Assembly (NCBI GenBank): GCA_020637195.1
Contig: JACJWK010000002.1
Coordinates: 2,299-66,298 of the forward strand
Length of the DNA: 64,000 nt
Reading direction: 5' to 3'
DNA from: Microthrixaceae bacterium
GTDB lineage: Bacteria > Actinomycetota > Acidimicrobiia > Acidimicrobiales > DATDAH01
The notes beneath the pieces were generated by a model, which ran no database searches, was not told the origin of the DNA, and saw only the letters and a list, made by a program, of their open reading frames with translations. The position numbers were made by a program, and so were the translations under genes. The stretch's first letter is position 1. Every line of letters begins with the position of its first letter. This document shows positions 36,323 through 58,000 of the stretch, one piece after another.

Positions 36323-37054
36323 GTGACCACCAGGCCCGGGACCCTCGACGCAGGCGGGACCGTCGACGCGGCGTCACCCGCGATCGAGGCGGTGGAGCTG
36401 CGCCGCGAGTACGGCCAGGGGGCGACCGCGGTCGTCGCGGTCGACGGCGTGTCGTTCACCGTCGCCGCCGGGGCGATGGTCTGCATCATGGGCAAGAGCG
36501 GCTCGGGCAAGTCGACGCTGCTCCGCCAGCTCGGGCTGATCGACGTGCCCACGTCGGGCACCCTGCGGCTCGAGGGCGCCGACGTGGCGGCACTCGACGA
36601 ACGGCGCCGCTCGGCGCTGCGCCTCGACCGGCTCGGGTACGTGTTCCAGGAGTACGCGTTGCTCCCGGAGCTGACCGCGGCCGAGAACGTGGCCCTCCCC
36701 GCCCTGATGCGCGGCGCACGGCGTTGGTCGGCGCGGGCCCGTGCCGACGACCTCCTCGCCCTCGTCGACCTCGGCGACCGCGCCGACCACCGCCCCAACG
36801 AGATGTCCGGAGGCCAGCAGCAGCGGGTGGCCATCGCCCGGGCGCTCGTCAACCGCCCGGGGATCCTCTTCGCCGACGAGCCCACCGGCAACCTCGACTC
36901 GCGGGCCACCGAGACCGTCATGGAGGCGCTCGTGCGCATGAACCAGGAGCTCGGGGTGACGATCGTCTTCGTGTCGCACGACCCCGACCACCGCGACTAC
37001 GCGTCCGACCTCGTGTACCTGCGCGACGGCCGCCTCGTGGAGCCGTACTTCTGA
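36323..37054 (+). CDS. ABC transporter ATP-binding protein (MacB/LolD-like)
   Basis: Walker A GKSGSGKST, signature MSGGQQQRV, Walker B ILFADEPT. TACGGT box 6 nt before GTG 36323. Confidence 0.9.
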   Translation: MTTRPGTLDAGGTVDAASPAIEAVELRREYGQGATAVVAVDGVSFTVAAGAMVCIMGKSGSGKSTLLRQLGLIDVPTSGTLRLEGADVAALDERRRSALRLDRLGYVFQEYALLPELTAAENVALPALMRGARRWSARARADDLLALVDLGDRADHRPNEMSGGQQQRVAIARALVNRPGILFADEPTGNLDSRATETVMEALVRMNQELGVTIVFVSHDPDHRDYASDLVYLRDGRLVEPYF

Positions 37055-38328: not shown

Positions 38329-38365
38329 GCGCCCGGGCCCGCCCGCGCCCCGGCGCGGTGCCACC

Positions 38366-38833
38366 ATGGGTGGGACGACCGAGGAGGACGCGCGTGGGCA
38401 CGGGCAGACGGGTGAGGGGCGACCGGGCGGTGCGACGGTGATCGACGACGCCACCGTCGCGCGGCTGGGCCGCCACTGGGAGCAGGGCTGGAACGGACCC
38501 GACCTCGAGGTGATCATGGCGCCGTTCGCCGAGGACGTCGTGTTCAGCTCGCCGTTCGTGCCCCGGATGACGGGCGATCCCGAGGACGACACGATCGTGG
38601 GGCGGGTGATGCTGCGGGCGTACCTGACCGCGGCGCTCGAGCGCGCGTCGGACGTCCGCTACACCCTCCACGCCGCCTACGCGGGCACCGACACCGTGGT
38701 GCTCGTGTACACCTGCCACCTCCCGGGCGGTGTGGACCAGCCCGGCGCCGACCTGATGCGGGTCGACGCCGCGGGCCGGGTGGTCGAGTGGCGCTGCCAC
38801 TACGGCACCGACCCCACCGGCTGGCGGCCGTAG
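38366..38833 (+). CDS. SnoaL-like/NTF2-fold protein
   Basis: About 155 aa. WEQGWNGPDLEVIMAPFAEDVVF...VVEWRCHY fits the NTF2-like pattern. Start is uncertain. Confidence 0.5.
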   Translation: MGGTTEEDARGHGQTGEGRPGGATVIDDATVARLGRHWEQGWNGPDLEVIMAPFAEDVVFSSPFVPRMTGDPEDDTIVGRVMLRAYLTAALERASDVRYTLHAAYAGTDTVVLVYTCHLPGGVDQPGADLMRVDAAGRVVEWRCHYGTDPTGWRP

Positions 38834-38857
38834 CGCCGGCGGCACCGACGGGCCGCG

Positions 38858-40441
38858 TCAGCCGATCAGGGAGTCGTGGCCCTCCCAGTAGCGCGCCCGG
38901 AGGCGGCGCTTGTAGAGCTTGCCGTTCGGGTCCCGGGGCAGCTCGTCCACGAGGTCGACCGACCTCGGGCACTTGTAGTCGGCGAGCTCCGCGCGGCAGT
39001 GGGCGAGCAGCTCCCCCTCGACCTCGGGGCCCGCCGCCGACGGGTCGGCGAGCTGCACGACCGCCTTCACGACCTCGCCCCGGTCGGGGTCGGGCACGCC
39101 GATGACGGCCACGTCGAGCACGGCCGGGTGGGCGGCGAGGACGTTCTCGGCCTCCTGGGGATAGATGTTGACCCCGCCGGAGATGATCATGTGGGCCTGG
39201 CGGTCGGTGAGGTACAAGAAGCCGTCGTCGTCGAGGCGGCCGATGTCGCCGAGCGTGCGCCAGCCCCGCTCGTTGGCGATCGACGCGGTCTTCTCGGGGT
39301 CGCCGTGGTACTCGAAGGGCCGCCCCCCGGCGAAGTAGACGACGCCGGTCTCACCCGTCGGAACCTCCTCGCCGTCGGGGCCGACGATGTGGCAGGCCTC
39401 CCGGGGCCGGCCCACCGATCCCGGGTGCGCGAGCCACTCCTCGGGGCCGATGGCGGTGCTTCCGATGTCCTCGGTGCCGGCGTAGTACTCGTGGATGATC
39501 GGTCCCCACCAGTCGAGCATCTGGCGCTTGACCGGGACGGGGCACGGTGCCGCCGCGTGCGACACGTGCCGGAGGCTCGACACGTCGTAGCGGTCGCGCA
39601 CCTCGGGCGGCAGGCGCAGGAGTCGCACGAACATGGTCGGGACGAACTGGGCGTGGGTCACCCGGTGGCGCTCGATCAGGGCGAGGCAGTCCTCGGGATC
39701 GAAGCGCTCCATGACCACCACGGCGGCCCCCAGGCGGTGCATCGACTGGGAGAAGACCAGCGGGGCCGAGTGGTACAGCGGTGCGGGGCACAGGTACACG
39801 GAGTCCGCGCCGACGCCCATGGCGGCGATGCCCATCGTGATCTGCACGGGCGCCGCCGTCGGGTCGCCGAGAGGGGTGCCGGGCCGGGGCTTGCGCACGC
39901 CCTTGGGGCGGCCCGTGGTGCCGGAGGAGTAGAGCATCTCCCGCCCCTCCTGCTCGTCCTCGAGGGGGCCGGGGGCGGTGGCGGCGAGCACGTCGTCGTA
40001 CGCCTCGAAGCCCTGGAGGGGCCCGGTGGTGGCGATGCGGACGGGGACCCGGTCGAGGTCCAGGCCCTCGACCACGTCGGCGAGGGCCTCGCCCGTCACG
40101 AGGGCGGTGGCCCCGCAGTCGTCGAGGACGTACTGCACCTCGGCGGTGGTGAGGTGGCGGTTGACGGCGGTGTAGTGCAGCCCCGAGCGCTGGGCCGCCC
40201 AGGCGACCTCGAGGTAGGCCCGCTCGTTGGGCAGCAGGATCGCGATCGAGTCGCCGACGGCGAGACCTCGCTCGCGGAGGGCCCGGGCGAGCCGGATCGA
40301 GCGGTCCTCCAGCTGCGCGTACGTCGTCACCTCGCCGGTACCGCCCATCACGATGGCGGCCGCGTCGGGGGTACGCGTCGCGTGGCTCGCCGGTGAGAGC
40401 GCCCCGCCGTCCCCCTCGGTCGTCGGCCCCCGGCTGGGCAA
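38858..40441 (-). CDS. acyl-CoA synthetase (AMP-forming, ANL superfamily)
   Basis: YSSGTTGRPKGV, YYAGTE, GDIGRLDDDGFLYLTDR, PRDPNGK. Start is uncertain: TTG 40441 or a later ATG. Confidence 0.85.
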   Translation of the reverse strand: MPSRGPTTEGDGGALSPASHATRTPDAAAIVMGGTGEVTTYAQLEDRSIRLARALRERGLAVGDSIAILLPNERAYLEVAWAAQRSGLHYTAVNRHLTTAEVQYVLDDCGATALVTGEALADVVEGLDLDRVPVRIATTGPLQGFEAYDDVLAATAPGPLEDEQEGREMLYSSGTTGRPKGVRKPRPGTPLGDPTAAPVQITMGIAAMGVGADSVYLCPAPLYHSAPLVFSQSMHRLGAAVVVMERFDPEDCLALIERHRVTHAQFVPTMFVRLLRLPPEVRDRYDVSSLRHVSHAAAPCPVPVKRQMLDWWGPIIHEYYAGTEDIGSTAIGPEEWLAHPGSVGRPREACHIVGPDGEEVPTGETGVVYFAGGRPFEYHGDPEKTASIANERGWRTLGDIGRLDDDGFLYLTDRQAHMIISGGVNIYPQEAENVLAAHPAVLDVAVIGVPDPDRGEVVKAVVQLADPSAAGPEVEGELLAHCRAELADYKCPRSVDLVDELPRDPNGKLYKRRLRARYWEGHDSLIG

Positions 40442-40455
40442 CTGGCCGGTCCCGG

Positions 40456-40683
40456 TCAGCCGGGGTAGCAGGCGCACCCGCCGCCGCACGGGCCCGCGGG
40501 CGGGCCGGCGCTGGGCGAGGGGCCCGCGGCGGTGGCCGAGCCGACCGAGGCGAACACGCTCAGCAGGCGGGTGGTGTCGTCGTGGCCGGCAGGGCACGGC
40601 GCGGGCTCGTCCGCGGCGGCCATGGCCCGGCGGAGCTCGAACGTGTCCCCGCAGGCGCGGCAGCGGTACTCGTAGGTCGGCAT
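40456..40683 (-). CDS. FmdB-family zinc-ribbon protein
   Basis: MPTYEYRCRACGDTFE...CPAGH..., with a Gly/Cys-rich tail GPCGGGCACYPG. 75 aa. Confidence 0.8.
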   Translation of the reverse strand: MPTYEYRCRACGDTFELRRAMAAADEPAPCPAGHDDTTRLLSVFASVGSATAAGPSPSAGPPAGPCGGGCACYPG

Positions 40684-40783
40684 CGGCCGCGATGCTACCG
40701 GCGACCCACACCCGCCACCGGTTCGGCCGGGCCCGACCGGCGGTGCGAGACTCGCCCGACGCGCACGGACGGAGGAAGGCCGG

Positions 40784-41545
40784 ATGGGAGCTCGCTTCGA
40801 GGGCAAGGTGGCGCTGGTCACGGGGGCCGGGTCGGGGATCGGCCGGGCGGTCACCCTGCGCCTGCTCGACGAGGGCGCGTCGGTGCTCGCCGTCGACGTC
40901 GACCCCGCCGGCCTCGAGGACACCGCCGGCTTCGGCGCCCTGGCCGAGGGTGCGGGCGAGCTGGCCACCGCGGTCGCGGACCTGCGTGACCCCGACACGT
41001 GCGTGTCGACGGTCCACACCGCCGTCGGGCGCTTCGGTCGACTCGACGTGCTCGGCAACGTGGCCGGCGTCCTCGTCGCATCGCATGCGACCGACCTCAC
41101 CCGCGAGCAGTACCGGACGGTCATGGCGGTCAACCTCGACGCGCCCTTCTTCCTGTCGCAGGCGGCCATCCCGCACCTGCTCCAGTCCGAGGGCAACATC
41201 GTCAACATCGCGTCGAACGCCGGGCTGCAGGGCGTGCCCTACGTCGTGGCCTACTGCATGAGCAAGGGCGGCCTCGTGCAGCTCACCCGGGCCCTCGCCA
41301 CCGAGTACCTGAAGACGCCGCTGCGGGTGAACGCCATCGCGCCGGCGGGCACCCGCACCAACATCGCCGCCACCGCAGCCTTCCCCGCAGACCTCGACGC
41401 CGAGCTGGCCGGGCGCATGGTGGGTCACCGGGGGATGACCGAGCCGGAGGAGGTCGCGGCGCTGTTCGCCTACCTGGCGTCGGACGAGGCCCGGTCGGTC
41501 ACCGGCGCGGTCTACACCATCGACAACGGCCTCACCGCGAGCTGA
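40784..41545 (+). CDS. short-chain dehydrogenase/reductase (SDR)
   Basis: VTGAGSGIG and YCMSKGG (YxxxK). Confidence 0.9.
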   Translation: MGARFEGKVALVTGAGSGIGRAVTLRLLDEGASVLAVDVDPAGLEDTAGFGALAEGAGELATAVADLRDPDTCVSTVHTAVGRFGRLDVLGNVAGVLVASHATDLTREQYRTVMAVNLDAPFFLSQAAIPHLLQSEGNIVNIASNAGLQGVPYVVAYCMSKGGLVQLTRALATEYLKTPLRVNAIAPAGTRTNIAATAAFPADLDAELAGRMVGHRGMTEPEEVAALFAYLASDEARSVTGAVYTIDNGLTAS

Positions 41546-41547
41546 CC

Positions 41548-42471
41548 GTGAAGATCGTCGTGGTCGGGACCGGGGCCATGGGCTCGGTCTACGCCGGGCT
41601 GCTCGCCGCGGCCGGCAACGAGGTGTGGGCCGTCGACCGGTGGGTGGAGCACACCGACGCCATCGCCTCGTCGGGCCTGCGGGTGTCGGGCGCCAGCGGC
41701 GACCGGGTCGTCGAGGGCCTCGCGACGGGCGGCCGGCCCGCCGACGCCGGGTCGGCCGACCTGTGGCTGGTCGCCACCAAGGCCGCCGACGTCGACGCCG
41801 CGGCGGCCGAGATCGCCCCGCAGTTGCGCCCGGACGACCTCGTCGTCGCCTTCCAGAACGGGCTCGGCGCCGGCGAGCGCGTGGCCCGCCACGTTCCCGC
41901 CGACCAGGTGCTGATCGGCATCGCCGAGGGCTTCGGCTCGTCGATCCCCGAGCCGGGTCACGTCCACCACGAGGGCATGCGGCTGATCCGGCTGGGCGAG
42001 CTCCACGGCGGGCTCACCGACCGGCTCCTGGCGGTGGAGGCGGTGTGGCGCGAGGCGGGCTTCGAGGTGAAGGCCTACGAGGACCTCACCCTCATGATCT
42101 GGGAGAAGTTCCTCTGCAACGTCACCCTGAGCGCTCCCACCGCGGTCTTCGACATGACCGTCGGCGAGCTCATGGCCGACGAGGCGGCGTGGGCGGTCGC
42201 CCTCGGCTGCACCGCGGAGGCGTACCGCGCCGGTGTCGCCGCGGGAGTGGCGTTCCCCTTCGACGACCCCGTCCGCTACGTCAGCGAGTTCGCCGCCACC
42301 ATCCCCGACGCCAGCCCGTCGATGCGCCTCGACCACCGGGCCGGGCGCCGCTCCGAGGTCGACGTCATCAACGGCGCCGTGGTCGACCTGAGCCGGGAGC
42401 TCGGCCTCGAGGCGCCGTACAACCAGACGCTGTGCGCCGTCCTGCGCCGGCGCGAGGCGGCGTTCGGCTGA
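41548..42471 (+). CDS. panE: 2-dehydropantoate 2-reductase (ApbA/PanE family)
   Basis: IVVVGTGAMGS, ...WEKFLCN..., SMRLDHRAGRRSEVDVINGAVV. Confidence 0.8.
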   Translation: MKIVVVGTGAMGSVYAGLLAAAGNEVWAVDRWVEHTDAIASSGLRVSGASGDRVVEGLATGGRPADAGSADLWLVATKAADVDAAAAEIAPQLRPDDLVVAFQNGLGAGERVARHVPADQVLIGIAEGFGSSIPEPGHVHHEGMRLIRLGELHGGLTDRLLAVEAVWREAGFEVKAYEDLTLMIWEKFLCNVTLSAPTAVFDMTVGELMADEAAWAVALGCTAEAYRAGVAAGVAFPFDDPVRYVSEFAATIPDASPSMRLDHRAGRRSEVDVINGAVVDLSRELGLEAPYNQTLCAVLRRREAAFG

Positions 42472-42568
42472 GCGACGCCACGGCCCGATGAGCCTCGGGC
42501 TCGTGCTCCGTCGGAGCAGCGTGAGCACCCGAGCGCCGACCCGGCCGCGCTCCCTACCCTGGGACGCG

Positions 42569-43567
42569 ATGGCCCTCCCCGAGACCGACACCACGCTGGA
42601 CCTCGAGCCGTTCCGCCGCGAGCTGACCGGCTACTGCTACCGGATGCTGGGGTCGGGCTCGGAGGCCGAGGACGCCGTCCAGGAGACGATGGTGCGCGCC
42701 TGGCGCAACGCCGATCGCTTCGAGGGGCGTTCCAGCCTGCGGACCTGGGTGTACCGCATCGCCACCAACGTGTGCATCGACATGAGCCGCCAGGTGCAGC
42801 GCCGCGCCCGGCCGATGGAGCTCGGGCCGTCGTCGCCGCCCGACGAGCGGCTGCTCGGGCCGCCCACGCCCGAGGCGATGTGGGTGACGCCGATGGCGGA
42901 CGACCGCGTCGCGCCGGAGACATCGGACCCGGCCGACGTGGCCCACCACCGCGAGACGATCCGCCTGGCCTTCGTCACCGCGCTCCAGCACCTCCCCGCC
43001 AAGCAGCGGGCCGCCCTGATCCTCTGCGAGGTCCTGCGCTGGCCGGCGGCCGAGGCCGCGGAGCTGCTCGAGACGACCGTGGCGTCGGTCAACAGCGCAC
43101 TGCAGCGGGCGCGGGCGACCATGGCGTCGCTGCCCGACCCGTCCGCCCACCCCGTCGACCTCGGCGACGTCGACGCCGCCCTGCTCGCGCGCTACGTCGA
43201 CGCCTTCGAGCGCTACGACATCGAGACGCTGGTGACCCTGCTGCACGAGGACGCCATCCAGTCGATGCCCCCGTTCGAGCTCTGGCTCCAGGGGGCCCGC
43301 GACATCGGCGCCTGGATGGTCGAGCCGGGGCCGAGCGGGTGCCGGGGCTCGCGCCTGGTGGCGACCCGGGCCAACGGGTGCCCCGCGTTCGGCCAGTACC
43401 GCCCCGACCCCGCCGGCGGGTGGGCGCCGTGGGCCATCCAGGTGCTGCACGTGTCAGGCGGGCGGATCGCCGAGATGAGCTTCTTCCTCGACCTGCTCGA
43501 CCCCGGCCGGGTGTTCCCCGAGTTCGGGCTGCCCGCCCACCTCGACGCATCGCCACTCGACGGATAG
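42569..43567 (+). CDS. ECF sigma factor with SnoaL-like C-terminal domain (SigJ/SigG-type)
   Basis: Region 2 DAVQETMVRAWRNADRF...WVYRIATNVCID. Region 4 LPAKQRAALILCEVLRWPAAEAAELL. C-terminal NTF2-like extension. Confidence 0.85.
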   Translation: MALPETDTTLDLEPFRRELTGYCYRMLGSGSEAEDAVQETMVRAWRNADRFEGRSSLRTWVYRIATNVCIDMSRQVQRRARPMELGPSSPPDERLLGPPTPEAMWVTPMADDRVAPETSDPADVAHHRETIRLAFVTALQHLPAKQRAALILCEVLRWPAAEAAELLETTVASVNSALQRARATMASLPDPSAHPVDLGDVDAALLARYVDAFERYDIETLVTLLHEDAIQSMPPFELWLQGARDIGAWMVEPGPSGCRGSRLVATRANGCPAFGQYRPDPAGGWAPWAIQVLHVSGGRIAEMSFFLDLLDPGRVFPEFGLPAHLDASPLDG

Positions 43568-43816
43568 GGACAGGCCCGCCAGCTCCACGAGCTCGCGGAG
43601 CTCGGGCCGCGCCTCCTCGACCATCAAGCGGGCGCCGCGGCGTCGAGCCACCAGCGCCAGCCGGGCCACGACGTCGACCGCGTCGAGGTCGGGTGGGCCG
43701 AAGCCGCGCAGCGTGCGTCGTGCCACCACGCGCCCGTCGGGCGTCACCACCCGCAGGCGGCACCAGGGTCGGGGTGCGGCCACGAGAGAGGGACGGCGCC
43801 CACCGCCGTCGCTCAT
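43454..43816 (-). CDS. small STAS-like (anti-sigma-antagonist-like) protein, tentative
   Basis: ATG 43816, 6 nt after GAGGTG. ...PPDLDAVDVVARLALVARRRGARLMVEEARPELRELVELAGL... resembles small actinobacterial STAS-domain proteins (from memory). The 3' 114 nt run antisense through the end of the sigma gene. Confidence 0.4.
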   Translation of the reverse strand: MSDGGGRRPSLVAAPRPWCRLRVVTPDGRVVARRTLRGFGPPDLDAVDVVARLALVARRRGARLMVEEARPELRELVELAGLSLSVEWRCVEVGGQPELGEHPAGVEQVEEEAHLGDPPA

Positions 43817-43846
43817 CGGTGACACCTCGGGTCCTACGGTGGCCCG

Positions 43847-44575
43847 GTGGCCGAGCGCGACCTCTACCTGCACGAGGTGATCGACATCGTCGGGCAGGGC
43901 CAGTACGAGTACATGGCCCACGCCGCCCGCGAGCCGACGAACGCGATGCCCGACATGCTCACGCTCCAGGGCACGTTCTTCGTGTGCGCCGTCGGCGGTG
44001 GGCGCTGGCCCCAGGTCGTCAACCTCTGGGACGTGGGCGAGGCCGGCTGGGACGGCTGGGCCGCCAACGTCGACCGCCTCAACCTGAAGCGGCGCGCGGC
44101 CTTCTACGGGGACTGGTGGGACGAGGCCGCCCAGTGGCGCACCGGCGGACTCGACCGGCTGTGCGGCGGCGTGGCGGGCAGCCCGACGACCGCGTCGCTC
44201 GCCGCCGCCGGGGTGCGGGGCACGCTGTTCGTGCACCAGCTGCTGACGGTGCGCCCGGGCGCGGCCCTCGACTACCTCGACGCCGTCGTCGCCGAGCAGG
44301 TGCCCGTGTGGCGTGACCACGGCCACGAGCCGACCGGGATCTACGAGGTGCTCTCCAACCAGCACGAGGTCGTGGTGGTCTGGGCGACCTCGATCGCGGC
44401 GCAGACCGGGTTGCGGCGGTCCCGTGACGCGCCCGGGGGCTCCTGTCCGGCCAGGCGGGTGCGCCTGAGGGCGACGAGCGCCTCGTGGCCTGGGAGCGCA
44501 CCGCCGCCGAGTACGTCACCGGCGGCGACACTCCACCCCATGACCCCATGCCCGGCACCGCTCCATAGCCCCTGA
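43847..44575 (+). CDS. hypothetical protein (possibly NIPSNAP/dimeric alpha-beta-barrel-like); 3' end appears frame-disturbed
   Basis: TACGGT box 6 nt before GTG 43847. The sequence is protein-like up to about aa 190 (...VVVVWATS...). After that the called frame becomes Arg/Ser/Pro-rich, while another frame reads ...GDERLVAWERTAAEYVTGG... Confidence 0.5.
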   Translation: MAERDLYLHEVIDIVGQGQYEYMAHAAREPTNAMPDMLTLQGTFFVCAVGGGRWPQVVNLWDVGEAGWDGWAANVDRLNLKRRAAFYGDWWDEAAQWRTGGLDRLCGGVAGSPTTASLAAAGVRGTLFVHQLLTVRPGAALDYLDAVVAEQVPVWRDHGHEPTGIYEVLSNQHEVVVVWATSIAAQTGLRRSRDAPGGSCPARRVRLRATSASWPGSAPPPSTSPAATLHPMTPCPAPLHSP

Positions 44576-44626
44576 CGACTGGGAAGAGGCCGACCTCGCC
44601 GACTGGCTCGGGTGAGGCAGCGGACA

Positions 44627-44674
44627 CGTTCTGGCTCCCCGATTTCGGTGCCAGGGCACCGAAATCGGAGCCAG
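44627..44674. repeat. palindromic element copy 1 (core GATTTCGGTGCC-AG-GGCACCGAAATC at 44641-44666)
   Basis: Read directly from the sequence. The 26-nt core is identical to 54446-54471. Outer arms CTGGCTCC/GGAGCCAG extend the stem. Confidence 0.9.
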
Positions 44675-44799
44675 TCCGGTGGACGGTGACGGATCGGTCG
44701 GGCCGGTTCCGGCCGACGGCACCGCAGGCGCCGCCGACGAGCAGGGGCTGGCGGTCGGCGTCGTCCTGGGGCCGTGGTTGCGCGCGCCGGTGCCGGTCG

Positions 44800-45474
44800 C
44801 CGGAGGCCGCCGACCGCGCCGGCGTGGCAGCAGTACCGGACGATGTAGGCCTTGCGGACCGTGCCGGTGGTGTTGACCCGGGTGGCGTGGGGCTGGTTGA
44901 CGAGAACACCACGACGTCGCCGGCGCTCGTGGGCACGTCGACCGCGGTGTCGTGGTCACCCCAGCACTCGAAGCCGATCGGCGTGTCGGCGTGGGCGAGG
45001 GGCCGCTGTCGCGGTGGGCGCCGGCGGCATGACCGACACGCAGCCGTTCTCGGGGTGGCGTCGGTGAGCGACACCCAGAAGGTCAGGTACGCCTGGGGCC
45101 TCGATGAACGTGTAGCTGTCCTGGTGCCACAGCACCGGCTCGGCGCCGTGGGGCACCTTGTAGACGGCCTGCTCCCAGTAGAGGCGCACGTCGTCGCCCA
45201 TGAGGTCCCGGCAGACCCCGGCGAGGACCGGGCTGCGGCAGAACGCCTTGGCGGCCCCGGAGCGCAGCACGACGTGCGGCGCGACCACCTGGGTGTCGAG
45301 CCCGGCGACCGAGAGGCGCCCGCCCTCCACCTGCTCGAGCAGCCCGGCGACGAGCTCGACCGCCTCGTCGCACGCCGCCTCGACCGGGGCCAGCTCGTCG
45401 GGGGTGAAGGCGCCCCGCAGCACGAAGAAGCCGTCCCGGTCGAACTGCCGGCGCTGCTCGTCGGTGATCGTCAT
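44800..45474 (-). pseudogene. phytanoyl-CoA dioxygenase (PhyH)-family Fe(II)/2OG oxygenase, multiply frameshifted
   Basis: ATG 45474 (MTITDEQRRQFDRDGFFVLRG...WHQDSYTF). The rest is readable only by hopping between all three frames: YLTFWVSLTDATP / ENGCVSVMP / GAHRDSGP / LAHADTPIGFECWGDHDTAVDVPTSAGDVVVFSS / ...HATRVNTTGTVRKAYIVRY. The 3' end is undefined. Confidence 0.75.
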
Positions 45475-45789
45475 CGGCGCCCGGTCGGGCAGCGCCCACG
45501 TGAACCCGTCGTTCCACCGATGGGGCGCTCGCTCCCGGGCCACGCGGTCACCGTAGCGACCCGGCGGCGGTGCTCATGGGTGCGGATGGTCGGCCTGCCG
45601 ACGGTGACGACCTGAGCACCAGCGCCGCTGGGCGGCGACCCTGGCCAAGGTCATGATGTGGGGGTACGTTGCGCTGACCGGCGTCGATCGTCGAACCTTC
45701 GATCGCCGCACGGCTCGAAGCCCGGTGCTTCCGCGAGGCCCCCGACCCGGGAGGCCCGCTCGTCCGACCTGACGAGAAGGAGGCACGAC

Positions 45790-46164
45790 GTGCCCAGCAT
45801 CGACGACCTGTCCCTGCCCGGCGACCCCGACTTCCCGGCCGAGGCGTTCTCGGTCGGCTGCGACGGCGACCTGGTCGAGCGGCGCTGGCTCGGCGGCGAG
45901 CCGTACTACGTCCACCACATGGACGTGCCGCCGTCCGACATCACGGTGCACCGGGGCATCCCGTGCACGACGCCGATCCGCGCCGTGATCGACATCGCCT
46001 GCGACACCGAGCCCGACCACCTCGACGCCGTCATCGGCGACTGCCTGGGGAGGGGGCTGTTCACCGTCGAGGAGGCCTGGCACCGCCTCGGCCAGCCCGA
46101 CATGGCCCAGCGCCACGGCGCCGAGATCGTCCGCCAGGCCCTCCGTCGGCTCGGCCTCGGTTGA
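45790..46164 (+). CDS. AbiEi-antitoxin-like/DUF559-associated N-terminal domain fragment protein
   Basis: Strong SD AAGGAGG 6 nt before GTG 45790. ...ITVHRGIPCTTPIRAVIDIACDTEPDHLDAVIGDCLGRGLFTVEEAW... resembles the middle of AbiEi-type/DUF559-linked proteins, but only about 124 aa are present. Confidence 0.45.
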   Translation: MPSIDDLSLPGDPDFPAEAFSVGCDGDLVERRWLGGEPYYVHHMDVPPSDITVHRGIPCTTPIRAVIDIACDTEPDHLDAVIGDCLGRGLFTVEEAWHRLGQPDMAQRHGAEIVRQALRRLGLG

Positions 46165-46397
46165 TATTCGAGTGGCTTCCGATGCCGGACGAGGTGTGGT
46201 CGCGGGCCCTCGAGCTGCAGCGCGCCGTCAGCGCACGGGGCCGGCTCCGGTCGGCGCGCCTCCCGGACCTGCTGATCGCCGCGACCGCCGAGCGCCACGG
46301 CGTGACGGTGCTGCACTACGACGCGGACTTCGACCTGCTCGCCGAGGTGTCCGACCTTCGGGCCGAGTGGGTCGTTCCCGCCGGCTCGGTGCCGTGA
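46161..46397 (+). pseudogene. N-terminally truncated PIN-domain VapC toxin remnant
   Basis: ...DEVWSRALELQRAVSARGRLRSARLPDLLIAATAERHGVTVLHYDADFDLLAEV...WVVPAGS is the C-terminal about 60% of a VapC. The N-terminal acidic-residue strand and any VapB partner are missing. Confidence 0.6.
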
Positions 46398-46489
46398 GCA
46401 CCACGAAGGCCGCCGCCGCGATGAGTTCCGCCGCCACCCGCCGTCGCACCCACCGACGCAACCGTCCGCGATGAACGAGGAGCACGACC

Positions 46490-47275
46490 GTGCCGCACCG
46501 TGAGCACGCCCCGGCCGGGGCGCCCTGCTGGACCGACCTCTGGACCTCCGACGTGGCGGGCAGCCGCCGCTTCTACTCCGAGCTGTTCGGGTGGGAGGCC
46601 GCCGAGCCGAGCGAGGAGTTCGGCGGGTACTTCATGTTCCTGCGCGACGGCGTGCCCGTCGCCGGCGGGATGGGGCCGATGGGGGACATGCCCGCCGGCG
46701 ACGTGTGGACGATCTACCTGGCCACGCCGGACATCGCCACCGCGGCCACCACCGCCGAGGGCGCCGGCGCCAGCCTGTTCATGCAGCCCGAGCCCGTCGC
46801 CGACCTCGGCAGCCAGCTGCAGATGGCCGACCCGCAGGGTGCCACCGTCGGCGCCTGGCAGGAGGGCACCTTCCCCGGCTTCACCGTGCTCGACGAGCCC
46901 GGCGCCCCGAGCTGGTGCGAGCTGCACACCCGTGACTTCCAGGGCTCGCTCGAGTTCTACCGCACGGTGTTCGGCTGGGAGACCCAGATGGTCGGCGACA
47001 CCGACGAGTTCCGCTACGCCGTCGTGCTGGCCGAGGCGGGCAGCGAGGAGCAGGTCGGGGGGATCATGGACGCCGGCGCCTGGCTGCCCGAGGGCGTCGA
47101 CGCGGTCTGGTCGATCTACTTCCTGGTGGAGGACGCCCAGGTGGCCGCCGACCGGGTCGTCGAGCTGGGTGGCTCGGTGATCGACCCGCCCGCCGAGACC
47201 CCGTACGGCGTGCTCGCGACGGTCGCCGACCCCGCCGGCGCCGTGTTCAAGCTGCGCACGGCGCCGAATGAGTAA
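46490..47275 (+). CDS. two-domain VOC/glyoxalase-family protein
   Basis: SD GAGGAG 7 nt before GTG 46490. A duplicated module (FYSELFGWE... and FYRTVFGWE...). Ends in the rare stop TAA. Confidence 0.8.
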   Translation: MPHREHAPAGAPCWTDLWTSDVAGSRRFYSELFGWEAAEPSEEFGGYFMFLRDGVPVAGGMGPMGDMPAGDVWTIYLATPDIATAATTAEGAGASLFMQPEPVADLGSQLQMADPQGATVGAWQEGTFPGFTVLDEPGAPSWCELHTRDFQGSLEFYRTVFGWETQMVGDTDEFRYAVVLAEAGSEEQVGGIMDAGAWLPEGVDAVWSIYFLVEDAQVAADRVVELGGSVIDPPAETPYGVLATVADPAGAVFKLRTAPNE

Positions 47276-47285
47276 GGATCTCCCC

Positions 47286-47314
47286 TTGACAGAGTAAGGA
47301 TTAATCCTTACTCT
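47286..47314 (+). promoter_or_regulatory. promoter (TTGACA-17 nt-TACTCT) with embedded 24-bp perfect palindromic operator AGAGTAAGGATT|AATCCTTACTCT
   Basis: Read directly: -35 at 47286-47291, -10 at 47309-47314, palindrome at 47291-47314. GTG 47321 lies 6 nt after the -10, so the TetR mRNA is probably leaderless. Confidence 0.6.
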
Positions 47315-47320
47315 GGCCCC

Positions 47321-48843
<1,523 letters not shown>

Positions 48844-48888
48844 GCGCCCCTCGGGAATCCTCGCCGGCGCCGACCGGTTGGGGCCGGC

Positions 48889-49326
48889 ATGGGATACACG
48901 GATGCCCCCGAGGGCTGGTGGAAGTCGTTCATCACCGAGCGGCGGCCCGCGCCGACCGGCAAGCTCGCCGTGGTGCGGGCGGACGGGAGCCCGCACGTGG
49001 CCCCGGTGTGGGTGGACGTCGACGGCGACGACGTGGTGTTCATGACCGCGGCGGACACCCTGAAGGGCAAGGCGATCCGGCGCGACCCCCGGGTGGCCCT
49101 GTGCTTCGACGACGAGCGGCCGCCGTTCAGCTTCGTGACGATCCGGGGCACGGCCACGACGAGCACCGACCCCGACGAGCTCCTCCACTGGGGCACGCGC
49201 ATCGCCGGGCGGTACATGGGCGCGGAGCAGGCCGAGGCCTACGGGCGGCGCAACGCCGTCCCGCCGGAGATGGTGGTGCGGGTCACCGTCGACCGGGTCG
49301 TCGCCAAGGTGGACGTGGCCGACTGA
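48889..49326 (+). CDS. pyridoxamine 5'-phosphate oxidase-fold (PPOX-class, probably F420-dependent) protein
   Basis: About 145 aa. ...GKLAVVRADGSPHVAPVWVDVDGDDVVFMTAADTLKGKAIRRDPRVALCFDDE... is a typical split-barrel pattern. Confidence 0.7.
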   Translation: MGYTDAPEGWWKSFITERRPAPTGKLAVVRADGSPHVAPVWVDVDGDDVVFMTAADTLKGKAIRRDPRVALCFDDERPPFSFVTIRGTATTSTDPDELLHWGTRIAGRYMGAEQAEAYGRRNAVPPEMVVRVTVDRVVAKVDVAD

Positions 49327-49365
49327 CGCGGCTCGACCCGTCCGCGAGGGGGTAGGAGCGCCACC

Positions 49366-50865
49366 GTGGCCACCGGCACGGTCGAACCGACCGGCGACCT
49401 GCTCGTGCTCGGCTCGGCCCGGGGGAGGATCGCCCTCGCGGCCTCGGTGGCGGCGAGCGCCTCGTCGATGCTCGACGGCACCGTCGTCAACGTCGCGCTG
49501 CCCGCCCTCGGCGACGAGCTCGGCGCCGACGTGGTCGGGCTCCAGTGGGTGATCACCGGCTACCTGCTCACCCTCGCGTCGTTCATCCTCCTCGGCGGCG
49601 CGCTCGGCGACCACCTGGGGCGGCGTCGGGTGTTCGTCGTGGGCGCCGTGTGGTTCGGACTGGCCTCGCTGCTCTGCGGCGTTGCGCCCACCCTGCCGGT
49701 GCTCCTCGTGGCCCGCATCCTCCAGGGGGTCGGCGCCGCGCTGTTGACGCCCACGTCGCTCGCGCTCCTCCAGGCGGGGTTCCGCTCCGGCGACCGCGCG
49801 GCCGCGGTCGGGGCCTGGTCGGGCCTCGGGGGCCTGGCCGGCGCCGTCGGCCCCTTCGTCGGCGGCTGGCTCGTGGACGGCCCCGGCTGGCGCTGGGCGT
49901 TCCTCGTGAACCTCCCGCTGCTCGCCGTGGCCGTCGTGGCGTCACGCGTGTTCCCCGAGAGCCGCGACCCCGACGCCGACCCCCGCTTCGACGTGATGGG
50001 CTCGGCCCTCGCCGTCCTGGCGCTCGCCCCGCTGACGTGGGCGCTGACGCAGGGACCCGAGCGCGGGTGGACCGACCCGCTCGTCCTCGCGGCGGCCGTC
50101 GTCGCGGTGCTCGCCGCCGCAGGCTTCGTCGTGCGCCAGCGGCGGGCGCCGGCCCCGCTGGTCCCCCGCGTCGTGTTCGCCCGCCGCGAGTTCACCGTCC
50201 TCAACGTGGTCACGTTCCTGCTCTACGGCGCGCTCGGCGTGGAGTTCTTCCTCGTGGTCGTGCAGCTCCAGGTCAGCGCCGGCTGGACCGCGCTCTCCGC
50301 CGGCACCGCGTTGCTGCCGGCCACCGTGCTCATGCTCGTGGGCTCGGCCCGCTCCGGGCGACTTGCCGCCCGCATCGGCCCCCGACCCCAGCTCGTCGCC
50401 GGTCCGCTGCTGGTGGCCGCCGGTCTCGTGCTGCTGGCCCGGATCGACGCGGACGCCCGGTGGCTCACCGACGTCGCACCCGGGGCGGTCCTGTTCGGCC
50501 TCGGCCTGGTGACGTTCGTGGCGCCCCTCACCGCCTCGGTGATGGGCAGCGTCGACGAGGCGCTCGTCAGCACCGCGAGCGGTGTGAACAACGCCGTGGC
50601 CCGCACCGGGGGCCTGCTCGCGGTGGCCGTCGTGCCCGGGGTCGCCGGCCTGGCGGTGACCGCCGGCCCCGCCGAGGTCACCGCGGCGTACGTGACCGCG
50701 ATGCACCTCACGGCCGGGCTCGCCGTCGCCGCGGCGGTCGTGAGCGCGGTGGGCCTGCGACGCACCCGGGTGGCGGCCTCGTCCCGTGAGCAGGTGTGCC
50801 CGGTCGACGGCGCGCCGCTCCAGCCCGACCCCCGACGCTGCCCGGCGGCGGCGGCCGCCGATTGA
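49366..50865 (+). CDS. MFS transporter (DHA2/EmrB-like, about 14 TMS)
   Basis: LDGTVVNVALP, GALGDHLGRRRVF (motif A-like), and repeated hydrophobic segments over 499 aa. Confidence 0.85.
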   Translation: MATGTVEPTGDLLVLGSARGRIALAASVAASASSMLDGTVVNVALPALGDELGADVVGLQWVITGYLLTLASFILLGGALGDHLGRRRVFVVGAVWFGLASLLCGVAPTLPVLLVARILQGVGAALLTPTSLALLQAGFRSGDRAAAVGAWSGLGGLAGAVGPFVGGWLVDGPGWRWAFLVNLPLLAVAVVASRVFPESRDPDADPRFDVMGSALAVLALAPLTWALTQGPERGWTDPLVLAAAVVAVLAAAGFVVRQRRAPAPLVPRVVFARREFTVLNVVTFLLYGALGVEFFLVVVQLQVSAGWTALSAGTALLPATVLMLVGSARSGRLAARIGPRPQLVAGPLLVAAGLVLLARIDADARWLTDVAPGAVLFGLGLVTFVAPLTASVMGSVDEALVSTASGVNNAVARTGGLLAVAVVPGVAGLAVTAGPAEVTAAYVTAMHLTAGLAVAAAVVSAVGLRRTRVAASSREQVCPVDGAPLQPDPRRCPAAAAAD

Positions 50866-50887
50866 CCGCGGGCGCCCGGCGGCCCGC

Positions 50888-51328
50888 TCAGGTGCGGCGG
50901 GCGACGAACATCGGGATCCGGCGCTCGGTGGCGTCCTGGTAGGTCTGGTAGTCGGAGTAGGCCGCGACGGCGCGGTCCCACCAGGCGGCCCGCTCGTCGC
51001 CGTCGACCTCCTCGGCCACCGCGTCGATCACCTCGGCGCCGTCCTGCACCGTGACGTGGGGGTCGGCCTTCACGTTGTGGTACCAGCCGGGGTTGGAGGG
51101 GGCGCCGCCGACCGAGGCGATCAGCGCGTACTCGCCCCCGTGCTCGACCCGCATCAGCGGGGTCTTGCGCAGCTTGCCGCTCTTGTGGCCCCGGTTGGTC
51201 ATGACGATGATCGGCAGCCCGGTGTCGGCGAAGGTGTTGGCCCGCTCGCCGCCGGACGCCTCGAACTCCTCGACCTGCTCGCGGACCCAGTCCCAGCTGC
51301 TCGGCTCGTACTCACCTTCGAGGGGCAT
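50888..51328 (-). CDS. deazaflavin (F420H2)-dependent nitroreductase-family protein (Ddn-like)
   Basis: ...IIVMTNRGHKSGKLRKTPLMRVEHGGEYALIASVGGAPSNPGWYHNV... Probable start ATG 51328; the track start 51337 is a TTG. Confidence 0.8.
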   Translation of the reverse strand: MPLEGEYEPSSWDWVREQVEEFEASGGERANTFADTGLPIIVMTNRGHKSGKLRKTPLMRVEHGGEYALIASVGGAPSNPGWYHNVKADPHVTVQDGAEVIDAVAEEVDGDERAAWWDRAVAAYSDYQTYQDATERRIPMFVARRT

Positions 51329-51344
51329 GGCCCGCAAGCTACCC

Positions 51345-52988: not shown

Positions 52989-55012
52989 GCGGCGTCGGCG
53001 GCGGGCTCGGTTCCGGCGGGGAGGGCGGGCGGAGCAAGTCGCTCAAGGTAGCGGCGGGTCGGGCCCGATCGGGACATGCCCGAGAGACACCGACCTTCCG
53101 CTCGGCGGGGCTCGGCATGGGTCAGGGGCGTCGCCGGCGGCGAGGGCGTCGGTGAGGCCGCTGGCCCGGGCGACGGGCGGGCGACGGCGGCCCGCACCGC
53201 GTCCTCGGTGCCGAGCACGGTGAGCCGGTGCTGCGCCCTCGTGACCGCGGTGTAGAGCAGCTCGCGGGTCAGCACCGGCGACGGCGGCCGGGGAGGCGCA
53301 CGACGACGTGGCCGAACTGCGAGCCCTGCGCCTTGTGGATGGTGATGGCGTACAGGAGTCGACCGCGGCCAGCCGCGTGGGCCGGACGAGCAGCGGCTCG
53401 CCCCGGCGCTCAGGCACGGCCTGGAGGCGCCCGCCGCCGACGTCGACGACCACCCCGGTGTCGCCGTTGAACACGCCGAGGCGTAGTCGTTCTCGGTCAC
53501 GATCAGCGGCCGGCCCGGGTACCAGGCGCCGGCGCCGTAGCCCGGGATCGTCGAGCGCAGCCAGCGCTCGATCGCCAGCCGCCACCTGGCGGCACCGGCC
53601 GGCCTGCGGCGGTGGGCGCAGAGCACCTGGACCTCGCTCAGGGCGGTGAGCGCACCCGGCGTCACCGGCCGAGGCGGCGGCGCGACCACCGAGCGGGCGG
53701 TGTCGACCGCACCGCACGGCGCGGAGCTCCGGGGCGGTGGTGGGGTCGGCGTCCGCCGACCTCCGCCACGTGACGTCGTCGCCGGCGGTCGCAGGGCGTC
53801 GACCACCGCGTCGGCGTCCCCCGACTCGATCGCGGCGGCGACGGTGGCGATGCCCCCGCCGAAGCGGTGCACGCGGCGCAGCTCGACGATGCCGGGCAGC
53901 GGCGACGCCACGATGTCGCCGAGGACGGCACCCGCCTCGACCGGGCGAGCTGGCGAGGTCGCCGACGAGGACCAGGCGGGCGGTGGGGCGCACCGCGTCG
54001 AGCAGGCGGGCCATGAGCGAGAGCCCGACCATCGAGCACTCGTCGACGATCACCACGTTGTGCGGGAGCTGGTTCGCCCGGTCGTGGCGGAAGCGGCTGC
54101 GGTGGTCGGGCCGCCATCCGAGCAGGCGGTGCAGCGTGGAGGTGGGCGTCGCCAACAGCGCGCCCGGACGGCCTCGCCGGTGTCAGGCGGCGGGCCTCCG
54201 CCTGCACCGCCTCGCCCAGGCGGGCGGCGCCTTGCCCGTCGGCGGCCAGTGCCACCCGGGGTGGTGGCTGACCGAGGGCGGCGGCCTGCTCGTGGAGCAG
54301 CGCCAGCAGGCGCGACCGTCGTGGTCTTGCCGGTGCCGGCCCGCCGGCGACCACCGAGAAGCGGCGCTCGACCGCGGTCGCCGCCGCGACCCGCTGCCGG
54401 TCGTCCTCCCCGCCCGAGATCGGCGTCCACCCTCCAACGGCTCCCGATTTCGGTGCCAGGGCACCGAAATCAGGGCCAGAACGGACGAGGAAGAGGCGGT
54501 CAGGCCGTCAGCCAGCGCAGCAGTGTCGACGGTGGGGCGGCCCGCCGGCGGGCGAGCAGGTCGGCGGTGATGGCCCGCTCGTGGCGCCAGTAGCGGTCGA
54601 GGTACAGGCGCGTGCGGCGAGGCGCAGCGGGCGGTCGTGGGCCCGCCGCCGCCCACCGCGGTGAGCGGGTGGGTGGCCCGCGGCGACCCAGGCGTCGGGG
54701 TCGGGCCAGGCGAGGGCGGCGACGTCGACGGCGACCTCCTCGTCCTCGGGGGCGATGGTGGTCGGCGCGGTGGCCAGGTCGGCGAAGACGTGGCCGGGCG
54801 CACGGCCCGCACGGCGAGCGCCGCGGCGGGCGACCTGTCCGTCGGGGTCCGAGCGCCGCCGGCAGGTCGGTGAGCGCCAGCGACGCGCACGTCGGCGGCG
54901 GCGAGGACGGTGGCGTCGCCCAGGGCCTGCGGAGCCCGGCGCCCACGGTGGGTCGCCGCCCGGCGTGGAGGTCGACGCCGCCGGCCGGCGTCGGCGGGGT
55001 CGCGGCGGTCAC
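52985..55012 (-). pseudogene. recD: RecD (exodeoxyribonuclease V alpha) gene, multiply frameshifted
   Basis: GTG 55012 forms a GTGA overlap with the recB stop. Motifs are scattered over three frames: RLYLDRYW, VVAGGP/GTGKTTTV/RLLALL, TLHRLLG, VVIVDECSMV, LVLVGD, VQVLCAHR, RLGVFNGDTGVV, YAITIHKAQGSQF, LLYTAVTRAQHRL. The 3' end could be 52985 or 53043. Confidence 0.8.
54439..54483. repeat. palindromic element copy 2 (core at 54446-54471), inside recD
   Basis: Identical 26-nt core GATTTCGGTGCC-AG-GGCACCGAAATC. The right outer arm AGGGCCAGAACG mirrors the left arm CGTTCTGGCTCC of copy 1. Confidence 0.9.
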
Positions 55013-58000
55013 AGGGCGCCCCGGTCGAGAGGTCGGAGAGGTCGGTGACGAAGGCCACCGGCGGCTGCCAGGTGAACACCCGGCGGGGCGCCGCCGACCC
55101 GCGGGGTGTCGGGGCCCACCATGCCCCGCAGGAACAGGTACGCCACGCCGCCGAGGTGGCGGCCCGGGTCGTACGCGGGGAGGCGCCACCGCAGGAACCG
55201 GTGCAGGCCACGCGTAGAGCGCCGCCTGCAGCGGTAGTGGGCGTCGGCCATGGCGGCGAGCGCCTCGGGACGGTAGTGGGCGGTCAAGCCGACCTCGCCG
55301 TGGGGCACCAGGTGGTTGGTCTTGTAGTCGACCACCACGTGGCGGGCGTCGCCCCCGGGCCCGTCGGCGAGGCGGGCGACGAGGTCGATCGAGCCGGAGA
55401 GGAAGCCTCGGACCTCGGCGGTGAGCAGCGGGTCGCAGAGGCGCTCGTGGTAGCCGGCCAGCGGGTCGCCGGCGGGCAGGCCCGCGAACACGTCGGCGAC
55501 GGCGGCCATGGTGACGAGCCGGTCGTGGGGCGGTCGCCGCCGGCGAGGGGCAGGTCGAAGGCGAGCTCGTCGAGTCGGTCGTGGCGGGTGAGGTCGCACA
55601 GGCGCGTCGTCCCAGGCCTCGCCCACGGCGTCCGCAGCGCCTGGGCGACGCCCGCGACCAGCGGGCTCGTGGCCCTCGACCAACCGTGGCGCACCGGCCT
55701 CGGTCGCCGCGACCAGCTCGGCGTCGAGGTCGGCGGCGGCGAAGTCGATCTGCTCCGAGCACCTCGTGCACGAGGGTGCCGACGCAGGCGCCGCGGGGAC
55801 GTCGGCGAGCGGTAGGCGCAGGGCCTCGGCGTCGGCGGCGGCGCCCTGACTCGAGCCAGGGCTCGTCGACCGTGGCCGCCTCCTCGCGCTCGGCGTCGGC
55901 GGCCGCCACTGGTGCCCTCGCCGCCCAGGTCACGCCCCAGGTCGACGTCGAGGCGGGGGCCGGTCTCGTGGGCCTCCCGCGTGAGGCCGCTGTAGGACGT
56001 CCGCACCCAGCAGCGGTCGAAGCCGCGATCGAAGCGGGCCACGGACAGGGCCGCCGCGTCGAGCGCCGGAGGGTCGTAGCGCTCGCCCGTCGCCCCCGTG
56101 GCCTCGACGGTGGGCAGCAGCCGGGCGGTGAGCTCGACGGTGATCTCGTCCTCGGTGGGCACGTGGTCGAGGCACCGGGCGACCGCTCCGGTGGCCGGGT
56201 CGGCGGCGAGCAGCACCCGGGCCAGCGGTGAGCGGTCGCTGTCGGAGGCGCTCGCCCACCAGGCGACCACGCGGTGGCGGGCCCGGGTCAGGGCCACGTA
56301 GAGCAGGCGCAGCTCCTCCTGGTCGCGCTCGTCCTCGGCGCGGTCGAGTTGCCAGCGGCGCAGGTCGCCGCCGCCGCCGACGCTGAGCGCCCGGTGGCCG
56401 TCGGTGTCGTGGAAGGTGCACACGTCGTCGTCGTCCTGGCGGCGGGCGTCCCAGAGGCTGGGCAGGAGCACGATCGGGAACTCGAGGCCCTTCGCGCTGT
56501 GGATCGTGTGCACGGCGACCGCGTCGGCATCGGTCTCCAGGCGCCGCCGGGCCGACTCGGCGCCGGACTCGGCGCCCGGCTCGGCGGCCGCGGCGCGCTG
56601 CTCCGCCACCCAGCCCGAGAGCGCGGTCAGCGACGACGGATGGTCGGCCTGGCGGGCGTGCAGCAGCTCGGCCAGGTGGCGCAGGTCGCTCAACAGGCGG
56701 TCGCCGCCGACCGTGCCCAGCAGCCGCTCGCTGAGGCGCGTGCCGGCTTCGACGCGTCGCAGCACGCCGGCCACCGTGTGGGCCCGCGCCGTGGCGGCCC
56801 AGTCGTGCAGGAGGGCGTCGAGCGCCTCCCAGTCGGCCTCGCGGGCGGCTGCCAGGCGCGCGGCGTCCCAGCCCACGAAGGGGCCGATGGCCACCGCGCG
56901 CACCCGGGCGGGGCGGGCCGGCTGCTCCAGCGCGTCGAGCAGCTCGCCCCAGTGGCGGGCGGCGTCGGTGCGCCACACGCTGCCGGCGCCGTGGACGACC
57001 GCGGGCACCCCGACGCCGTGCAGCGCGTCGCGGGACACGGTGGCCTCGTGGTGCGTGCGGGTCAGCACGGCCAGGTCGCCCGGCCCCACCGGTCGGCCGT
57101 CGAGGGTGCTCCCGCTGTTGAGCAGGCGCACGGCCTCGGCCGCGAGGTCCTCGGCGAGGAAGGCCCGCACGGCGCCCTTCGCGGCGACCCGGGTCCTCTT
57201 GGTCAGGGCGAACCGCCCGCTGTCGTTGCGGGCCACCTTGACGAGCAGCGGCGGCCCGGCGGCGGGACCGTCGAGGCCGGGGCCCTCGGCCCCGGGCCGG
57301 GCCTGGACCGGTCGGTGGCGGATGGCTTCGTCGCCGAGCTGGGCACCGGCGAGCACGGCGTCGAGCGCGGTCAGCAGCGGCCGGTCGGCCCGCCAACTCG
57401 TCGACAGGCCGCTCCGGTGGTCGGCGCGCCGGGTGGCGGCGAGGTAGGCGTGCACGTCGCCGCCGCGGAAGGCGTAGATCGCCTGCTTGGGATCGCCGAC
57501 GAGCACGAGCCGGCAGGGCGGCTCCCCGAAGGCCCGCTCGAGGATCCGCCACTGGATGGTGTCGGTGTCCTGGAACTCGTCGACCACCGCCATCGAGAAG
57601 CGGGCCCGCAGGCGCTCGGCCACGATGTCGCCGCGGCGACCCTCGGCCAGGCTGGCGTCGAGGCGGTCGAGCAGGTCGTCGTAGGTGAGGAGCCGACCCT
57701 CGCGCTTCTGGTCGGCGATGCGGGCCCGCACGGCGCGGGCGAAGGCGCGCCGCTGGCGATCGACGGGGTGGTCGTCCACGGGGGCGATGGCGCAGTCGGG
57801 GTGCTCGACCACCGCCCGGGCGATGGCGGCGGCCGTGCCCGGCTCGAAGTGGATCTCGTCGCCGGCCAGGACCCGGCGCACGTAGAGGTCGCGGACGGCG
57901 TCGTCGACGAGGTCCCGCACGTCCTCGACGAGCTCGACGTCGCGCTCGGCGTCGCCGGCCACTCCGAGCCCGGCCAGCACCTGCTGGCAGAAGCCGTGGG

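Follow-up and report, generated by a model that had tools for sequence, protein, structure and literature searches.

Repetitive extragenic palindromes (REP/BIME) and Rickettsia palindromic elements (RPE), the latter being in-frame elements inside genes, are the described elements closest to the repeat treated here. For runs of frame changes such as those beside this repeat, the closest described system is technical. In hybrid assembly, bridging by long-read consensus is a documented mechanism (Unicycler, PMC5481147); such bridges, and the false pseudogenes of long-read MAGs, appear as sharp, indel-rich patches at breaks of the short-read graph, and in long-read or hybrid MAGs the affected genes are split into truncated deposited ORFs. 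A pipeline of this type was used by Liu et al. 2021 (PMC8518188), who obtained activated-sludge MAGs with metaFlye followed by Unicycler on each bin, based on ONT reads with an accuracy of 86.7%.

Here, we present an analysis of a 64-kb stretch of DNA (the window) from a Microthrixaceae MAG, in which an earlier note, made from the sequence alone, had described frame-hopping in a PhyH-family gene and in the 3' end of its convergent neighbor. We found that the frame changes are present at ~44429-45118, and that a second tract of the same kind lies at 53013-55910. Both tracts are sharp, indel-rich patches at short-read breaks that split genes into truncated deposited ORFs, as Unicycler bridges and false pseudogenes do; they differ from Unicycler bridges in that they run 0.2-1.45 kb past the repeat, into sequence that the short reads of other samples assembled. 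We conclude that both tracts are, very probably, uncorrected patches of error-prone long-read consensus in the MAG and not biology.

Frame changes in the PhyH gene and its convergent neighbor

The gene for the PhyH-family Fe(II)/2-oxoglutarate dioxygenase lies on the minus strand at 44700..45543, with an approximate 3' end. Using frameshift-aware protein-to-DNA alignment of five PhyH homologs (P0001-P0004 and P0007; 277-305 aa, 79-88% identical) against the minus strand, we found that 6-7 frameshifts of both signs, together with several whole-codon indels, are demanded between 45120 and 44720, in agreement with the previous claim of at least five frame changes. The shift sites are +1 at ~45099, −1 at ~45049-45055, +2 at ~45026, −1 at ~45000, −1 at ~44896, +1 at ~44802, and +1 at ~44723. 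The loss of 1 nt that had been read in a G/C run near 45050 was also recovered, as a run of five G read as four at 45055. Two details require revision. As homologs share the conserved N-terminal sequence MARER..HxWN, translation likely starts at GTG 45543 rather than at ATG 45474, and, counted from this start, the clean stretch comprises ~142 codons instead of ~125.

None of the PhyH homologs, hundreds of which are ~277 aa long (range 277-305 aa), needs any shift. Similarly, L171, a same-strain contig that extends across the entire gene, has an uninterrupted PhyH frame of at least 310 codons. The PF05721 profile aligns to this same-strain ORF over its full length (1-213/213) with 93.3 bits (cut-off 22; E = 3e-26), while the ORF in the window reaches 36 bits and covers profile positions 1-147 only. 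Thus, once the errors are removed, the gene encodes an ordinary member of the PhyH/phytanoyl-CoA dioxygenase family (PF05721, including the ectoine-hydroxylase-related dioxygenases). The deposited version differs from this family in being truncated: ORF 44956-45543 corresponds to MCB9371498.1 (identical to P0033; 'MAG: PhyH family protein [Microthrixaceae bacterium]'; 260,316-bp contig) and has only 195 aa. In an exact look-up of P0033, no contig encoding this product was on record.

The motifs WHQDNGY and SPHATRVN, which we take to hold the Fe(II)-binding HxD...H metal ligands of PhyH, occur in every homolog as well as in the same-strain translation. In the window, WHQDNGY is changed to WHQDSY by the loss of 3 nt at 45116, and SPHATRVN is read in another frame. 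These observations bear on the idea that the gene is functional as deposited through programmed ribosomal frameshifting or recoding. This would call for at least 6-7 shifts of both signs in 400 nt in addition to codon-level indels inside the iron-binding motif; moreover, there is no single shared shift site, and homologs and same-species DNA have one open frame. We consider the probability of recoding negligible.

The convergent gene (gene A; 43847..44615 on the plus strand, stop TGA at 44613-44615) encodes a conserved hypothetical protein for which a Pfam profile search returned no family. It was deposited as MCB9371497.1 (H6518_01785) with 242 aa, compared with ~254 aa for intact homologs. 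The gene was said to lose its protein-like character after ~44420, and this is what we observed: the sequence matches 95%-identical homologs perfectly to ~44428, and frameshifts relative to these homologs start at ~44430. The lesions comprise a −1 shift at ~44430, an extra codon, a scrambled stretch (THLMTP..TVYGP), and a +2 shift at ~44564; the C-terminus PDDWE.ADL.DWL is regained in a different frame, which stops at TGA 44613-44615. Up to 44423, gene A is identical to same-species contigs; no same-strain contig covers 44424-44613, and the lesions in that interval are placed by comparison with the 95%-identical homologs. A homolog search and a cluster listing returned no same-strain, full-length gene A, but only the contig-end partials P0432 and P0433.

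Gene A belongs to protein clusters of 15 and 37 members, and relatives with 90-95% identity are present in public assemblies. Just past 44423 (ARGLLSG..EGDERL), the length of the protein differs between relatives. If co-occurring strains or species that share the gene ends and the palindrome had been collapsed into one consensus, these many relatives could have contributed to it, and the length-variable stretch could also account for the short-read contig ends at this place. However, most lesions correspond to no relative's allele, and frame-breaking indels of 1-2 nt fall in invariant motifs such as WHQDNGY. Also, the substitutions in the first tract do not match the orthologous loci L003-L005. 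A mixed consensus is, therefore, improbable, and it would still be an artifact.

These three loci, which come from short-read assemblies with ~80% DNA identity to the window, carry the same gene pair, neither gene being broken (305 and 285 aa), and their spacers contain the palindrome core as well. In a global alignment to L004, the window has no indels in 989 nt of clean coding sequence and ~15 within 44426-45120, while substitution identity in the PhyH core (90.8%) is not below that of the clean part (85.6%). Judged from these alignments, natural decay would not leave the PhyH core as conserved as the clean part.

As an approach without references, we used a codon-position HMM. The reading frame is legible from composition, with GC3 at 98-100% in clean genes and the window at 75% G+C. 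All 10 frameshift-like switches of the window fell into the two tracts (44.4-45.1 kb and 53.2-55.9 kb), while 510 kb of related short-read loci yielded 12. The concentration of frame switches in the window is far above chance.

The two tracts compared with same-species contigs

By exact-sequence look-ups of clean neighboring proteins, we identified same-species contigs in the NCBI MAGs GCA_020439545.1 and GCA_020439165.1, several ENA assemblies, and one Logan contig, all of them short-read. Apart from the tracts, the window shares 99.8-99.9% identity with these contigs. Two further queries were used in a metagenome scan: with ORF 48075-49355, no relative was returned, and with the TauD-like protein, only relatives of ≤81% identity and no same-species contig were returned. 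ORF 48075-49355 is a spurious wrong-frame ORF.

Error tract 1 (44429..45118) includes the 3' end of gene A, the first palindrome copy, and the distal 60% of the PhyH gene, and contains ~27 small indels and excess substitutions. To its left, the 7936 nt of 36488-44423 align to L161 with 12 substitutions and no indels; to its right, the 7878 nt of 45119-52996 align to L171 with 10 substitutions and, again, no indels. Between them, the 492 nt of 44627-45118 differ from L171 by 18 indels of 1-3 nt (9 insertions and 9 deletions) and 13 substitutions. Thus, contrary to what had been proposed, the damage is not restricted to indels: substitutions are also elevated ~20-fold (13 in 492 nt versus ~1.3-1.5/kb outside). 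Overall, tract 1 has ~6% error with insertions equal to deletions. At each lesion in 44627-45118, the five independent contigs L170-L174, taken from one NCBI MAG and four ENA assemblies, share one sequence that differs from the window, and the PhyH frame is restored in them. The PhyH gene of L170 appears split, which is only apparent and caused by a run of N in the record. Single open frames on re-sequencing had been named as the mark of an artifact, and for PhyH these were found in independent assemblies rather than in the original reads.

Error tract 2 (53013..55910) surrounds the second palindrome copy, and its 56 indels disrupt both recD and the 3' third of recB. The 1347 nt of 53000-54346 differ from L170 (GCA_020439545.1) by 25 indels, of which 22 are deletions, and 6 substitutions; the 1485 nt of 54446-55930 differ from L158 by 31 indels, of which 29 are deletions, and 14 substitutions. 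Immediately beyond, 55931-58959 (3029 nt) aligns to L158 with 4 substitutions and no indels. Every lesion of tract 2 is absent from L158 and L170. Consistently, L158 encodes an intact RecB of 1127 aa (P0121), and the orthologous locus L159 has an intact recD of 649 aa that carries the palindrome. Tract 2 extends nearly symmetrically from the center of the palindrome (1445 + 1452 nt). Its error is ~3%. Deletions account for 51 of its 56 indels, with ~30 located in runs of G or C, and G>A changes make up 9 of 14 substitutions. Deletions concentrated in homopolymers together with G>A changes are the typical profile of low-depth Nanopore consensus, and the platform was probably Nanopore. The difference in error profile between the tracts may reflect different bridging depth.

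The earlier note had weighed two explanations, very recent inactivation and a local failure of base calling or polishing. The second stands, while the first is in effect ruled out, for the PhyH side at least. Real recent pseudogenization, e.g., by error-prone repair of hairpin breaks, would mean that PhyH, its neighbor, recB, and recD are dead, and it would be in line with the clustering of lesions around two hairpin-forming palindromes. However, the two tracts together contain 74 indels in 3.3 kb, while the 18.8 kb of flanks (36488-44423, 45119-52996, and 55931-58959), which are 99.85% identical to the references, contain none, and the lesions are missing from all covering same-species contigs, i.e., from at least five other assemblies. 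Moreover, the normal excess of substitutions over indels is absent, with 74 indels versus 33 substitutions inside the tracts, and the lesions lie in sharp patches, at the edges of which indel density changes from zero in 7.9-kb flanks to 19-37/kb. We know of no biological process that gives an indel density of 2-4% in sharply bounded kilobase patches. Finally, the spectrum is error-like (homopolymer deletions, slips of 1-3 nt, and G>A), four genes are hit at once, and the hairpins of both copies are damaged. Together, these observations make recent inactivation very improbable.

The palindromic repeat and the ends of short-read contigs

The first palindrome copy (44628..44674; 47 nt) lies between the convergent genes. 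In the window, its left arm has an extra C and its right arm lacks one G, while the same-species contigs have the perfect form GGCTCCCGATTTCGGTGCC AG GGCACCGAAATCGGGAGCC; the predicted RNA folding energies are −36 and −44 kcal/mol, respectively. The second copy, which is the only other one in the window (54439..54482), is in frame within recD and occupies the linker from the RecD_N domain to the helicase domain. Both are copies of a dispersed 50-bp repeat: in five related MAGs (Acidimicrobiales, Microthrixaceae, and Iamiaceae; all short-read assemblies), the exact core GATTTCGGTGCCNNGGCACCGAAATC is present in 75 copies at 72 loci. The consensus forms a perfect hairpin (24-nt arms), for which folding at ~−46 kcal/mol is predicted. 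The copies lie mostly in spacers 3' of genes (median spacer length 107 nt), in 24 convergent, 37 tandem, and only 6 divergent contexts.

With many copies of one short hairpin sequence that is mainly extragenic, the repeat qualifies as REP-like; as in REP/BIME, it is short, strongly folding, dispersed, and mostly located in spacers. The in-frame copy in the variable linker of recD is, in addition, reminiscent of RPE. To our knowledge, the sequence is unrelated to any known REP or RPE.

In relatives, the flanks of the palindrome have 6 frameshift-like calls in 179 kb; the window tracts, by comparison, have 10 in 3.4 kb. Therefore, the palindrome by itself does not damage adjoining genes, and the 75 copies with clean flanks further argue against pseudogenization. 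Accordingly, the association between frame changes and palindrome that was described previously is real, but technical and not biological. It can be imagined that the window represents a sub-population in which hairpins at the palindromes were broken repeatedly, with error-prone repair over 0.2-1.5 kb on each side and destruction of recBCD. If true, this would be a new kind of localized hypermutation around palindromic repeats; we consider it extremely unlikely.

The ends of same-species contigs support a technical origin. L161, L166, and L167, from three assemblies, end at 44423, 44414, and 44363, i.e., 6-66 nt before the first lesion at ~44430, and L170, L171, and L173 start at 44614-44627, 1-14 nt before the first palindrome copy. 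L158 ends inside the second copy, at 54446, and L170 runs from the first copy to 54346, ~90 nt short of the second. Thus, short reads assemble the clean parts of the window, and the tracts sit at the short-read breaks of the species. At the outer edges (45118, 53013, and 55910), there are no matching contig ends elsewhere except the stop of the L171 alignment at 52996. Dropout of Illumina reads driven by GC content was rejected as a cause, as the tracts have a GC content of 0.72-0.75, the same as their surroundings. Likewise, we rejected that the stretch between the palindromes was inverted or misassembled on a large scale because gene order and orientation match L004 and L159, which cross palindromes.

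Origin of the tracts and meaning for the annotation

Altogether, the tracts have the features of long-read patches, namely small indels of which many are homopolymeric, sharp boundaries, and breaks in short-read assemblies. We suggest that the strongly folding 50-bp palindrome would act as the trigger, causing short-read assemblies to be interrupted at its copies or close to them. An assembler of the long-read or hybrid type would then cross the break using long-read consensus, in which small insertions, deletions, and some miscalls would remain that gene callers would read as frameshifts. Because the 260-kb contig crosses such breaks, long reads must have been used.

Regarding the step at which the patches were introduced, we lean toward bridging with long reads, as in Unicycler, where the graph of the short reads would have come to a dead end. 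Alternatively, the assembly could have been long-read-first (Flye/Canu type), with short-read polishing failing locally around the hairpins. Failed polishing would give the same localization and the same error profile. Moreover, the candidate pipeline (PMC8518188) has long-read-first assembly as its second step, and split genes are observed in long-read-style assemblies of relatives: L001 has a split ATPase (702+249 aa) and a split peroxidase (378+314 aa), while the ATPase of L002 is intact with 935 aa. However, the edges of the tracts are very sharp, and that of tract 1 on the left lies within 6-66 nt of three independent contig ends, which suits a join at a contig bridge better than polishing that fades out gradually; the GC content of the tracts is ordinary. 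Based on these considerations, failed polishing is possible but the less probable of the two. It is possible that the MAG originates from the study by Liu et al. (PMC8518188), for which the circumstantial evidence is the accession era, the habitat, and the same-species contigs from samples that may be related.

A few observations weigh against the artifact account, namely the patch width, the near symmetry of tract 2, and the difference in error profile. In other samples, short-read contigs extend to 44614 (L170-L174) and 54446 (L158), and a simple failure of short reads to cover the tracts would not give patch widths of 0.7 and 2.9 kb. Nevertheless, none of the three argues for biology. The run of frameshifts is, therefore, a true observation of an assembly artifact and not a real feature of the organism.

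Through the two patches, at least four genes of the deposited MAG (PhyH, H6518_01785, recD, and recB) are truncated or split, and counts of pseudogenes, gene losses ('RecBCD absent'), or frameshift sites based on this MAG would be misled. The practical value of the finding lies in quality control and as a curation flag for MAG annotation, and the signature, kilobase indel patches around copies of a dispersed palindrome while the rest of the contig is clean, is usable as a filter in genome scans. The only real biology that we met is the palindrome family with its in-frame copy in recD, a small feature that could be described separately. As for the organism itself, it most probably carries an intact PhyH gene, an intact convergent neighbor, and intact recB and recD.

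Second error tract and comparable breaks in related assemblies

Another error tract, similar in kind to the first, occupies 53013-55910, where it disrupts recD as well as the nuclease end of recB. Relative to same-species contigs, it contains 56 indels, of which 51 are deletions, and it reaches 1445 nt to one side of the palindrome centre and 1452 nt to the other, an almost perfectly symmetric arrangement. In the comparison of 54472-55927 with L158, a same-species short-read contig, 9 of the 14 substitutions were plus-strand G>A changes, most of which convert CCG to CTG on the gene strand; this excess could reflect a methylation-related base-calling bias. Two near-identical public contigs of one relative, L001 (ENA contig_59330) and L002 (ENA contig_25363), differ in gene integrity: the P-type ATPase is broken into 702 and 249 aa in L001, while it is whole (935 aa) in L002, and a peroxidase of L001 is broken into 378 and 314 aa. 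Therefore, similar frameshift artefacts are present in other long-read-style assemblies of the group.

Gene boundaries near palindrome copy 1

In each of three different assemblies, the same-species short-read contig stops within 44363-44423, and 44424-44613 is covered by no short-read contig of the species. The gene segment directly past these ends (ARGLLSG..EGDERL) varies in length among relatives, and we suggest that it may tangle short-read assembly graphs. On the other side, the PhyH frame of the same-strain contig L171 (1-930, minus strand, corresponding to 44614-45543) is open across palindrome copy 1, which in this frame encodes LAPDFGALAPKSGA, the same peptide as the recD copy. The frame reaches the contig end without a stop codon; PhyH homologues terminate ~30 codons before that end.

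Separately, at 47950-47990 the TauD-like dioxygenase gene seemingly opens with 13 consecutive threonine codons (MTTTTTTTTTTTTTAPST...). Because the exact 297-aa product from this start is absent from the protein collection, the annotated start may be a different one.

A dispersed palindrome family and its in-frame copy in recD

The perfect 50-bp palindrome belongs to a dispersed repeat family with the consensus GTTCTGGCTCCCGATTTCGGTGCC CT GGCACCGAAATCGGGAGCCAGAAC and a predicted RNA folding energy of ~ -46 kcal/mol. In addition to the copies at 44628-44674 and 54439-54482, 75 copies were found in loci L006-L077 of five related MAGs (Acidimicrobiales, Microthrixaceae, Iamiaceae). The copies lie chiefly downstream of genes (37 in tandem, 24 in convergent and 6 in divergent contexts), and the family looks REP-like or terminator-like.

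The recD copy (54439-54482, with recD on the minus strand; L158:4520-4553) is in frame and encodes VLAPDFGA(L/R)APKSG in the linker that joins RecD_N to the helicase domain. The intact recD orthologue (649 aa) on L159, a contig of a relative, also carries the palindrome in frame (10020-10070), while the palindrome is degenerate in L176 and absent from L175. Given this distribution among the compared sequences, the recD copy appears to be an in-frame insertion specific to the lineage and recalls the Rickettsia palindromic elements.
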